Of a stretch of DNA of 64,000 nt, positions 40,408 through 41,292 are shown piece by piece. The notes below the pieces were generated by a model. It did not search any database. It was given only the letters and a program-made list of their open reading frames with translations, and was not told the origin of the DNA. Position 1 is the stretch's first letter. Each line of letters opens with the position of its first letter. The stretch is taken from the IMG/VR virus record IMGVR_UViG_3300035520_001286, positions 4,532 to 68,531 of that record; one strand, written 5' to 3'. Both the position numbers and the translations under genes were made by a program. This DNA is from a virus (taxonomy: Duplodnaviria > Caudoviricetes).

Positions 40408-40463
40408 CTACCCTTTTTTGTTGTTTATTTATATTATACCTTATTTAGTATATTTTTAAAATT

Positions 40464-40539
40464 TGGTCGGAAAGGTTGGACTCGAACCAACGGCAACCAC
40501 TTTATAAGAATGGCCCCATCACCCCTTGGGTACTTTCCG
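40464..40539 (-). tRNA. tRNA-Ile(UAU)
   Basis: Full cloverleaf: acceptor CGGAAAG/CTTTCCG, anticodon loop CT-TAT-AA, TTCGAGT T-loop, encoded CCA; 76 nt. Confidence 0.9.
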
Positions 40540-40544
40540 ATAGT

Positions 40545-40635
40545 ATAGGGGATAAAAATAACTAATTAACACACAGGGGAAAATACAAACTGGAGGTAAA
40601 TGGACAATTCACATATTAGCTATTTTATTCCCTAT
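40545..40635 (-). ncRNA. long hairpin RNA between tRNA-Lys and tRNA-Ile with C/U-rich loop
   Basis: About 20-bp imperfect terminal stem ATAGGGAATAAAATAGCTAAT / ATTAGTTATTTTTATCCCCTAT; loop contains UUACCUCC and UUUUCCCC. Confidence 0.55.
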
Positions 40636-40711
40636 TGGTAACCCATTTGAGATTTGAACTCAATACCCCGAAATTAAAAGTTTCGTGCTCTACCAAATGA
40701 GCTAATGGATT
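40636..40711 (-). tRNA. tRNA-Lys(UUU)
   Basis: Cloverleaf: AATCCAT/ATGGGTT, GCTC/GAGC D-stem, CGAAA-CTTTTAA-TTTCG, TTCAAAT, CCA; 76 nt. Confidence 0.92.
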
Positions 40712-40718
40712 ATATATA

Positions 40719-40821
40719 CTTAAACATGGCTGACGGTTTTACCCACATTTAACAAATAAACATCCTACAAAATTATAAAATAATACAATTTCCCAACTTT
40801 TAATAATGCACCATGTTTAAG
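40719..40821 (-). ncRNA. stem-enclosed spacer RNA between tRNA-Leu and tRNA-Lys
   Basis: Perfect 11-bp terminal stem CTTAAACATGG/CCATGTTTAAG enclosing 81 nt. Confidence 0.45.
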
Positions 40822-40825
40822 GTTT

Positions 40826-40912
40826 TGGTCGGAAGAATGAGATTTGAACTCATATGATATTTCTATCGAGGGATTTTAAATCCCTTGTGTCTGCCTGTTC
40901 CACCATCCTCCG
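40826..40912 (-). tRNA. tRNA-Leu(UAA)
   Basis: CGGAGGA/TCTTCCG acceptor, AGGGA-TTTAAAA-TCCCT anticodon arm, long variable arm, TTCAAAT, CCA; 87 nt. Confidence 0.92.
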
Positions 40913-40917
40913 ATATT

Positions 40918-41022
40918 GGTTATAATATTACTTTTGATTCTGGTAATAATCAATTTCATTATATTAGGTTAGCTACTCCTAATAATTATAACCTCAAATT
41001 TACATTGCTTTACCAGAGCAAT
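40918..41022 (-). ncRNA. structured RNA with four helices and a 7-bp loop-loop pseudoknot
   Basis: P1 ATTGCT/AGCAAT (loop CTGGTAA); P2 GGTTATAAT/ATTATAACC; P3 TATTAGG/CCTAATA; P4 TTGATT/AATCAA (loop ATTACCAG); CTGGTAA is complementary to TTACCAG. Confidence 0.65.
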
Positions 41023-41028
41023 TAAATT

Positions 41029-41099
41029 AGCACTATCTCAGACTCGAACTGAATCTTCCCATATAGTGGGCTGTTTTTCCTTCTTAAACTAAATAGTGA
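41029..41099 (-). tRNA. tRNA-like element with shortened anticodon arm (5-nt loop CUAUA), no CCA
   Basis: Acceptor (T)CACTAT/ATAGTG, D-arm GTTT..GG..AAAC, T-arm TTCAG-TTCGAGT-CTGAG, anticodon arm CCCA-CTATA-TGGG. Confidence 0.65.
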
Positions 41100-41105
41100 T
41101 ATTGT

Positions 41106-41174
41106 TGCCACATATAAGATTTGAACTTATATTTGCTAATAATTTAGCCGCTCTTCCTATTGAGCTAATGAGGC
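41106..41174 (-). tRNA. tRNA-like element with 4-nt anticodon loop (AUUA), ends ACA rather than CCA
   Basis: GCCTCAT/ATGTGGC, GCTC-AATAGGAA-GAGC, GCTAA-ATTA-TTAGC, ATAAG-TTCAAAT-CTTAT; 69 nt. Confidence 0.7.
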
Positions 41175-41177
41175 ATC

Positions 41178-41213
41178 TTATTACTATTAATAACTGAAAA
41201 TTAATAGTAATAA
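41178..41213. other. 13-bp inverted repeat at the 5' side of the RNA cluster
   Basis: TTATTACTATTAA / TTAATAGTAATAA. Confidence 0.5.
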
Positions 41214-41292
41214 AAAAAATAATTATGAGGGTTGTAAAATATAAAAAATTATATTTACATTTATATTATACTTAAACATTTAAATTATATTC

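Follow-up and report, generated by a model that had tools for sequence, protein, structure and literature searches.

The window, i.e., the whole stretch of DNA analyzed in this work (64,000 nucleotides), covers bases 4532-68531 of a 68.5-kb virus record of IMG/VR (IMGVR_UViG_3300035520_001286). The record represents an uncultivated phage with direct terminal repeats. The G+C content of the window is 28%, and the minus strand holds nearly all genes. Among these we found structural and packaging genes (terminase, portal, and major capsid protein), as well as genes for a DnaE-type polymerase, RecA, a primase, an ATP-dependent DNA ligase, SSB, and two sigma-like factors. We searched the phage genome for a tyrosine integrase and found none, and hence it looks like that of a virulent tailed phage. 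Its G+C content points to a host that is also low in G+C.

A tRNA cluster lies on the minus strand, where two tRNA-shaped elements, hereafter E1 and E2, stand upstream of three intact tRNA genes (Table 1). The latter score between 50.9 and 62.5 bits with Rfam and read the codons UUA, AAA, and AUA; in the large genes of the phage, AAA is the most used codon and AUA the ninth. A first-pass annotation had reported two tandem tRNA-like elements at 41029-41174, both retaining the acceptor stem, the GG of the D arm, and the T arm. Our analysis with Rfam, ARAGORN, and RNAfold confirmed the pair, and the segmentation of the two sequences, together with their cloverleaves in RNAfold, recovered the arms in each of them.

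Table 1. The tRNA cluster and its surroundings, in the order of the minus strand.
Feature	Position	Strand	Description
Leader hairpin	41176..41215	(-)	16-bp perfect A/U-rich stem, 8-nt loop; ends 1 nt before the first base of E1
E1	41106..41174	(-)	69-nt tRNA-shaped element; Rfam, RNAfold, ARAGORN -ps95
E1-E2 spacer	41099..41105	(-)	ACAAUAU, 7 nt
E2	41030..41098	(-)	69-nt degenerate tRNA-shaped element; ARAGORN -ps95/-ps90, RNAfold
Spacer with two hairpins	40913..41029	(-)	Folding z -1.96
tRNA-Leu(UAA)	40826..40912	(-)	CCA encoded; ARAGORN, Rfam
Structured spacer	40712..40825	(-)	12-bp closing stem; z -2.43
tRNA-Lys(UUU)	40636..40711	(-)	CCA encoded; ARAGORN, Rfam
Structured spacer	40540..40635	(-)	Closing stem of about 20 bp; z -2.47
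tRNA-Ile(UAU)	40464..40539	(-)	CCA encoded; ARAGORN, Rfam

The first element, E1, differs from a working tRNA essentially by one 3-nt deletion, located outside any homopolymer, and by one mismatch. It matches the tRNA family of Rfam (RF00005) with 52.3 bits (E-value of 2.3e-8 for the window), a score that is inside the range of the true tRNAs and passes the gathering threshold of 29 bits, in an alignment that skips the anticodon loop. Its acceptor stem has 7 bp with one U4.U69 mismatch, the D arm is GCUC/AAUAGGAA/GAGC, the variable loop has 4 nt, and the T arm is AUAAG/UUCAAAU/CUUAU. This results in an acceptor/T stack of 7+5 with a single U.U mismatch and in a complete elbow. All tertiary positions are kept (U8-A14, A15-U48, G18 G19, A21, G26-A44, G53-C61, and U54-A58), and RNAfold predicts a cloverleaf (z -2.65). 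The anticodon arm, GCUAA-AUUA-UUAGC, consists of a perfect 5-bp stem and a 4-nt loop, exactly as described in the first-pass annotation. Even when one A-U pair is opened, the loop does not exceed 6 nt, and a 7-nt loop that has U33 and a purine at position 37 and presents a triplet is absent. ARAGORN run with -ps95 reports the element as 'tRNA-???(tt)'. Judged as a canonical tRNA, E1 passes the Rfam threshold but lacks the 7-nt loop, and E2 fails on both counts.

The 3' end of E1 has a discriminator A followed by ACA in place of CCA. A single base distinguishes the flank A-ACA-AUA from the A-CCA-AUA of the tRNA-Lys of the cluster, which fits the mutation of an encoded CCA. The 5' half of E1 is similar to tRNA-Lys (86% over 21 nt) and the T arm to tRNA-Leu (85% over 20 nt). 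Seven double, compensatory, pair changes separate E1 from tRNA-Lys. They show only a long past as a separate lineage of working tRNAs, and are no evidence of selection after the collapse of the loop. We sought an ancestral isotype for E1 and for E2, and none could be assigned to either.

The second element, E2, is more degenerate. Its acceptor arm is CACUAUU/(G)AUAGUG and its D arm GUUU/AAGAAGGAA/AAAC, where three of the four stem pairs are A-U. The anticodon arm begins with a G27.A43 mismatch and can then be read in two ways: as CCCA-CUAUA-UGGG, a 4-bp stem with a 5-nt loop that is preferred by RNAfold, or, in ARAGORN, as a 3-bp stem with the 7-nt loop ACUAUAU, anticodon UAU and C33. The 5-nt loop CUAUA of the first-pass annotation is hence only one of the possible readings of E2. 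The variable loop has 3-4 nt, the T loop is UUCGAGU, and the acceptor/T stack counts 11 bp instead of 12 (7+4 or 6+5). All elbow and core tertiary nucleotides are present, and RNAfold again predicts a cloverleaf. Rfam finds no tRNA match for E2 even at E<=10. In ARAGORN it falls just under the default threshold and is called as tRNA-Ile(tat) at -ps95 and -ps90. The 3' end has a discriminator C followed by UAA. Neither element thus encodes CCA, in line with the earlier annotation, whereas all three true tRNAs of the cluster do. Both have C3-G70 rather than G3.U70, their D and anticodon stems are full, and a long variable arm is missing from each.

The tRNA likeness of the two elements is not a product of chance. 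When the thresholds of ARAGORN were relaxed to -ps95 and -ps90, nothing but E1 and E2 was added in 64 kb, and the two lie side by side on the same strand as the tRNA cluster. In 30 dinucleotide shuffles of the window, ARAGORN found no match at -ps95 and 0.1 per window at -ps90. A chance origin is excluded. We then have to consider how frequent such elements are around real tRNA genes. In 2.66 Mb of other contigs, we counted 31 near-threshold tRNA look-alikes beside 643 normal tRNAs, and 6 of these look-alikes have anticodon loops of 6 or 8 nt. Two of the five tRNA-shaped genes of the cluster, side by side, have short anticodon loops, more than the background of 1-5%. Still, look-alikes are noticed only if their stems survive, and the pattern of kept stems and lost loops is therefore partly an ascertainment bias.

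The G+C content of E1 (35%) and E2 (39%) is far above that of the leader (12%) and of the spacers (23-30%), which means that there was little time for drift or that the elements are under constraint. The leader hairpin folds with -14 kcal/mol (z -6.26), none of 200 shuffles folds equally well, and it occurs a single time in the window. We rejected it as an intrinsic terminator since no run of U follows it. Possible roles are that of an RNase III site or of a 5' stem that protects the transcript of the tRNA operon. Because the hairpin abuts E1, it suggests that this end of the operon is organized, not abandoned. We searched for terminator-like sites between the upstream gene, E1, E2, and tRNA-Leu, and found none. 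A candidate antisense terminator at 41058-41070 is no more than expected by chance, and promoters are called in the region at a frequency that is not above the shuffled background. Short motifs on the plus strand, ATTTATATTATAC and TATACTTAAACAT (41259-41279, 40715-40727, and 40427-40439), are repeated upstream of E1, of tRNA-Lys, and of the SSB gene, and contain TATAAT on the minus strand. They may be promoter elements of the phage.

The spacers downstream of E2 span 96-117 nt, and those between true tRNAs, of 96-114 nt, are closed by long stems (z about -2.4). These closing stems, at 40712-40825 and 40540-40635, bring the 3' end of one tRNA beside the 5' end of the next. As for the neighboring ncRNA proposed in the first-pass annotation, it amounts to two hairpins in the spacer that follows E2, and these are weakly supported (z -1.96). 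The hairpin directly after E2 (40997-41028, minus strand) has an extended stem and a 7-nt loop, CUGGUAA, that resembles an anticodon arm (U33, GGU, A37). A third decayed tRNA at 40972-41046 was discarded: ARAGORN calls it only at -ps85, where shuffled windows give 2.9 matches each, i.e., it is at chance level.

Relatives of the phage are distant. Searches with SSB, the 153-aa product of the upstream gene, and the DNA ligase revealed no close relative among the viral contigs of IMG/VR, nor did SSB among JGI metagenomes. An identical SSB (P0001) is found on a 16.8-kb contig, and the alignment of SSB includes 80 loci with 31-41% identity, none of which has tRNAs beside SSB. Among 5.8 billion proteins, the closest terminases are 54-55% identical (the best, including P0006 and P0007, are mostly from Logan/ENA), and the nearest TerL among GenBank phages has 27% identity. 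The alignment of terminases includes 51 kin loci in IMG/VR. In two of these kin, G006 and G007 (TerL 55%), the tRNA cluster adjoins a homologue of the gene of 200 aa that follows SSB in our phage (39062-39664), and is hence positionally equivalent to the one described here. This cluster encodes Leu(UAA)-Pro-Met-Thr-Gln; its first gene is tRNA-Leu(UAA), and upstream of it there are small reading frames and nothing that resembles a tRNA. Other members of the group (TerL 47-55%) have Thr-Leu-Asn-Gln (G010) or Met-tmRNA-Thr (G009).

None of the searches for E1 or E2 elsewhere returned an orthologue. When E1, E2, and the spacers were compared with all kin loci by short-word blastn, only generic matches to D arms and T arms came up, and the Rfam tRNA search of 39 kin records showed no element like E1. 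We also searched metagenomes for the D arm and the T loop of E1 at any spacing (the gap is of 23 nt in E1 and of 26 nt with a normal loop). This retrieved normal tRNAs of many isotypes that have the D arm in common, and none of the 80 matches listed has the 23-nt gap of E1. The pattern of its anticodon arm, with loops of 4-7 nt, matched only coding DNA, by chance, in 185,579 species genomes and IMG/VR, and the pattern of the tRNA-Ile(UAU) had one match, in an unrelated 132-kb contig with a lone tRNA. Since no orthologue was found in the 39 kin records nor in the viral, metagenome, and genome collections, where the closest kin has only 55% TerL identity, E1 and E2 seem specific to this phage lineage.

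These searches brought up other unusual tRNA-like genes. The genome G009 (TerL 47%) has a full tmRNA between tRNA-Met and tRNA-Thr (L275:1209-1532; RF00023, 66.4 bits; tag ANIKSNRPVALAA* in ARAGORN), and weaker 3' ends of tmRNAs were observed at three other kin loci (L298, L299, and L300). A CCA-encoding tRNA-like gene with G3.U70, no U33, and the T loop UUAAAGU is present in G014 (L270:1501-1579; RF00005, 42 bits) and also in G012. About 700 nt downstream of it in G014, an element of 96 nt (L270:2292-2387) resembles the tRNA-like domain of tmRNA without the coding part, with a score of 38.5 bits for RF00023 that is below the threshold of 47. In the distant kin G028, a 69-nt tRNA-like element (L296:265-333; RF00005, 28.7 bits) has a 5-bp anticodon stem with a 5-nt loop, GGCAA. 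Its elbow is broken (no G18 G19, T loop UGCAAAU), a tRNA-Gln follows 1.1 kb downstream, and similar DNA is absent from three other kin records of 74-76 kb. Finally, a metagenomic sequence (WNFI01172717.1, L090:3712-3753) has a D arm identical to that of E1 with the T arm 15 nt later, and may be a tRNA-like gene without any anticodon arm.

We favor, with moderate confidence, the reading of E1 and E2 as young relics: tRNA genes at the head of a tRNA operon that no longer decode and have begun to decay. Small deletions, of 3 nt in E1 and about 2 nt in E2, would have removed the anticodon loops. Both elements are probably still transcribed with the cluster, given that they are on the same strand, between the upstream gene and tRNA-Leu, with no terminator in between. 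RNase P and RNase Z find their determinants in the acceptor/T stack and the elbow of the tRNA. Since these are kept, cutting by both enzymes is still probable; it is reasonable to expect from the intact elbow and core nucleotides that E1 and E2 would be recognized, and their excision probably persists, possibly followed by the addition of CCA. Reading of codons would be impossible with a loop of 4-5 nt that has no U-turn and presents no three bases, and aminoacylation is unlikely for RNAs that lack the anticodon and have neither G3.U70 nor a long variable arm. As relics, the two elements would have no function of their own.

Several observations argue for decay. The sets of tRNAs turn over rapidly in this group of phages, as seen in the differing clusters of the kin, and the equivalent cluster of G006 and G007 starts directly at tRNA-Leu(UAA). 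The loop of E1 is explained by one 3-nt deletion, and the lesions of E2 affect several arms (the G.A mismatch, the short variable loop, the missing pair of the stack, and the A/U-rich D stem). Near-threshold look-alikes are ordinary around tRNA clusters, and G028 has its own with a 5-nt loop. Searches of the phage genome for a tRNA-repair gene, a CCA-adding enzyme (PF01743), or a Ro/TROVE partner, which would suggest a dedicated RNA function, found none of them. On the other hand, neither element has lost any of the tertiary nucleotides of the elbow and core, their G+C content is well above that of the flanks, and two neighboring genes with short loops exceed the background expectation. The first-pass annotation had concluded that the same defect in both elements, with the stems preserved, looks selected. 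This argument is weaker than it sounds, because E1 needs a single 3-nt deletion, E2 has further lesions, and the ascertainment bias applies.

The same intact features are what one would expect if E1 and E2 were selected as tRNA mimics that do not decode, an alternative that we regard as somewhat unlikely. The L-shape would then be kept on purpose, and RNase P, RNase Z, and the CCA-adding enzyme would yield two stable uncharged RNAs. They could serve as punctuation at the 5' end of the precursor, or titrate a host factor that reads the acceptor, T arm, and elbow instead of the anticodon. Such a factor could be an acceptor-end toxin of the MenT/AbiEii type, a tRNA nuclease of the Schlafen or OLD type, or an enzyme of tRNA processing or quality control. 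The tertiary positions, the G+C content at the level of tRNAs, the short-loop defect common to both neighbors, and the organized hairpin ahead of E1 all fit with selection. It has precedents in mascRNA (PMC11693755) and in a pseudo-tRNA of Bacillus cereus (PMC3399842), and the clusters of the kin carry non-decoding tRNA-like RNAs (the tmRNA and the 96-nt element). However, there is no orthologue in the kin or in the collections, and hence no covariation. The additional lesions of E2, including the 11-bp acceptor/T stack, do not suit a tuned mimic, and a partner protein is not evident. As to punctuation, the downstream tRNAs would be released without any element at the 5' end, since RNase P cuts each tRNA separately. 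If the elements are selected, a factor that recognizes the body of the tRNA or its acceptor end is a more likely target than an anticodon nuclease. We consider it unlikely that a virulent phage deliberately makes two uncharged, anticodon-less mimics as sponges or decoys for a factor binding the elbow or the acceptor end, which in a bacterial virus would parallel mascRNA and the tRNA-like RNAs of gammaherpesvirus 68. It is highly improbable that they are uncleavable decoys for anticodon nucleases (PrrC, RloC, AriB of PARIS, or the retron-linked PtuAB), although the cluster includes a tRNA-Lys, the classic target of PrrC and PARIS (PMC10264068, PMC11464382). The known counter-measures are working tRNAs with altered loops of full size (PMC10264068, PMC11464382, PMC11555353), and the established specificity of these nucleases implies that an RNA without the loop would hardly be bound and could not replace a cleaved tRNA.

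The remaining explanations invoke E2 alone, the DNA, or the data. It is very doubtful that E2 is a weak decoder, which would make it another tRNA-Ile(UAU), one whose anticodon stem has 3 bp and whose loop has C33 and pairs A32 with U38. The 7-nt loop found by ARAGORN, with anticodon UAU and A37, and the frequent use of AUA in the large genes would be in line with it, but C33 replaces the near-universal U33, two mismatches lie atop the anticodon stem, and either the T stem has 4 bp or the acceptor stem 6 bp, with a variable loop of 3 nt. Moreover, E2 has no Rfam tRNA score, RNAfold favors the 5-nt loop, and the cluster already has a canonical tRNA-Ile(UAU). Equally little weight can be given to scars at the level of DNA, left at the anticodon loop by the imprecise loss of a mobile element (an intron or a homing-endonuclease cassette) or by the recombination of tandem tRNAs. 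The lesions are at the same place in both genes, and the two ends of E1 resemble different tRNAs of the cluster. Mobile elements seem to be active in this group of phages, judging from the terminases of the kin: homologues of 800-1050 aa (P0040, P0042, P0048, P0051, P0061, and P0065) contain inteins or LAGLIDADG domains. Unlike many homologues of the group, the terminase of the window has neither, and we searched the phage genome for GIY-YIG and HNH_3 genes and found none. No remnant of an intron is present, a nuclease gene would not fit into the spacers, and the similarities to tRNA halves are confined to generic tRNA positions. An error of assembly or sequencing is extremely improbable as the origin of the short loops. 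The record is a metagenome assembly, and CUUAUAA would turn into the CUAUA of E2 if a U and an A were dropped. Yet reading frames of up to 929 aa are uninterrupted in this A/T-rich genome full of homopolymers, which means that indel errors are rare, and E1 requires a 3-nt deletion outside a homopolymer. Two errors would be needed, in two adjacent anticodon loops.

E1 and E2 are most accurately placed among the degenerate tRNA genes, also called tRNA-like pseudogenes, of phage tRNA clusters, and so belong to a known kind of element. Like the tRNA pseudogenes of phage and bacterial clusters, they have a cloverleaf, lie beside real tRNAs on the same strand, score just under the thresholds of tRNA finders, and have loops of abnormal length. 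They differ from them by forming a tandem pair with every elbow and core nucleotide intact, and E1, with 52 bits, otherwise equals working tRNAs. Comparison with mascRNA and menRNA, the tRNA-like RNAs that RNase P and RNase Z release from MALAT1 and MEN-beta before CCA is added (PMC11693755, PMC8457004), shows common traits as well: a tRNA-like acceptor and T arm, a compact loop in the anticodon arm, and a CCA that is not encoded, and mascRNA itself is not aminoacylated. The tails of E1 and E2, ACA and UAA, are compatible with the RNase Z route. However, mascRNA is a conserved eukaryotic RNA whose D arm is reduced and whose four-way junction has no linker residues, whereas E1 and E2 have a full D arm and the junction. 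Conservation of the kind seen for mascRNA was not found for E1 and E2 in the 39 kin records and the collections, a weak test when the closest kin has 55% TerL identity.

The pseudo-tRNA of Bacillus cereus, tRNAOther, is not functional in translation, yet a phenotype appears when it is deleted (PMC3399842). It resembles E1 and E2 in being a tRNA-shaped RNA in a low-G+C Gram-positive setting, but it is chromosomal and flanks a genomic island. PrrC, RloC, and PARIS read the anticodon loop (PMC10264068, PMC11464382), and the phage tRNAs that escape tRNA-targeting defenses are, like E1 and E2, phage-encoded, located in tRNA clusters, and changed in the anticodon loop (PMC10264068, PMC11464382, PMC11555353). 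Yet these tRNAs keep a 7-nt loop, still decode, and replace the cleaved tRNAs of the host, while decoding is impossible for E1 and almost certainly so for E2. YrlA (PMC4201824) and the tRNA-like domain of tmRNA also mimic the acceptor, T arm, and elbow without a working anticodon, but E1 and E2 have full D and anticodon stems and no G3.U70. We rejected a tmRNA or permuted tmRNA, since RF00023 has no match in the window, ARAGORN detects no tmRNA, and G3.U70 is absent. A YrlA mimic (RF02553) was rejected as Rfam gives no match and the genome has no TROVE domain. Finally, an attP copy of a host tRNA was discarded because there is no tyrosine integrase, the anticodon-arm pattern of E1 matched no tRNA in the 185,579 species genomes, and both elements are of full length, not 3' halves.

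If E1 and E2 are relics, as we favor, they are an ordinary illustration of the rapid gain and loss of tRNA sets by phages. If instead selection maintains them, mimicry of the body of a tRNA without its anticodon would be shown for the first time for RNAs of a phage. This would imply that some host defenses or enzymes sense the shape of tRNAs instead of the anticodon loop, and would add a new kind of RNA counter-defense to the strategy of resistant tRNAs.
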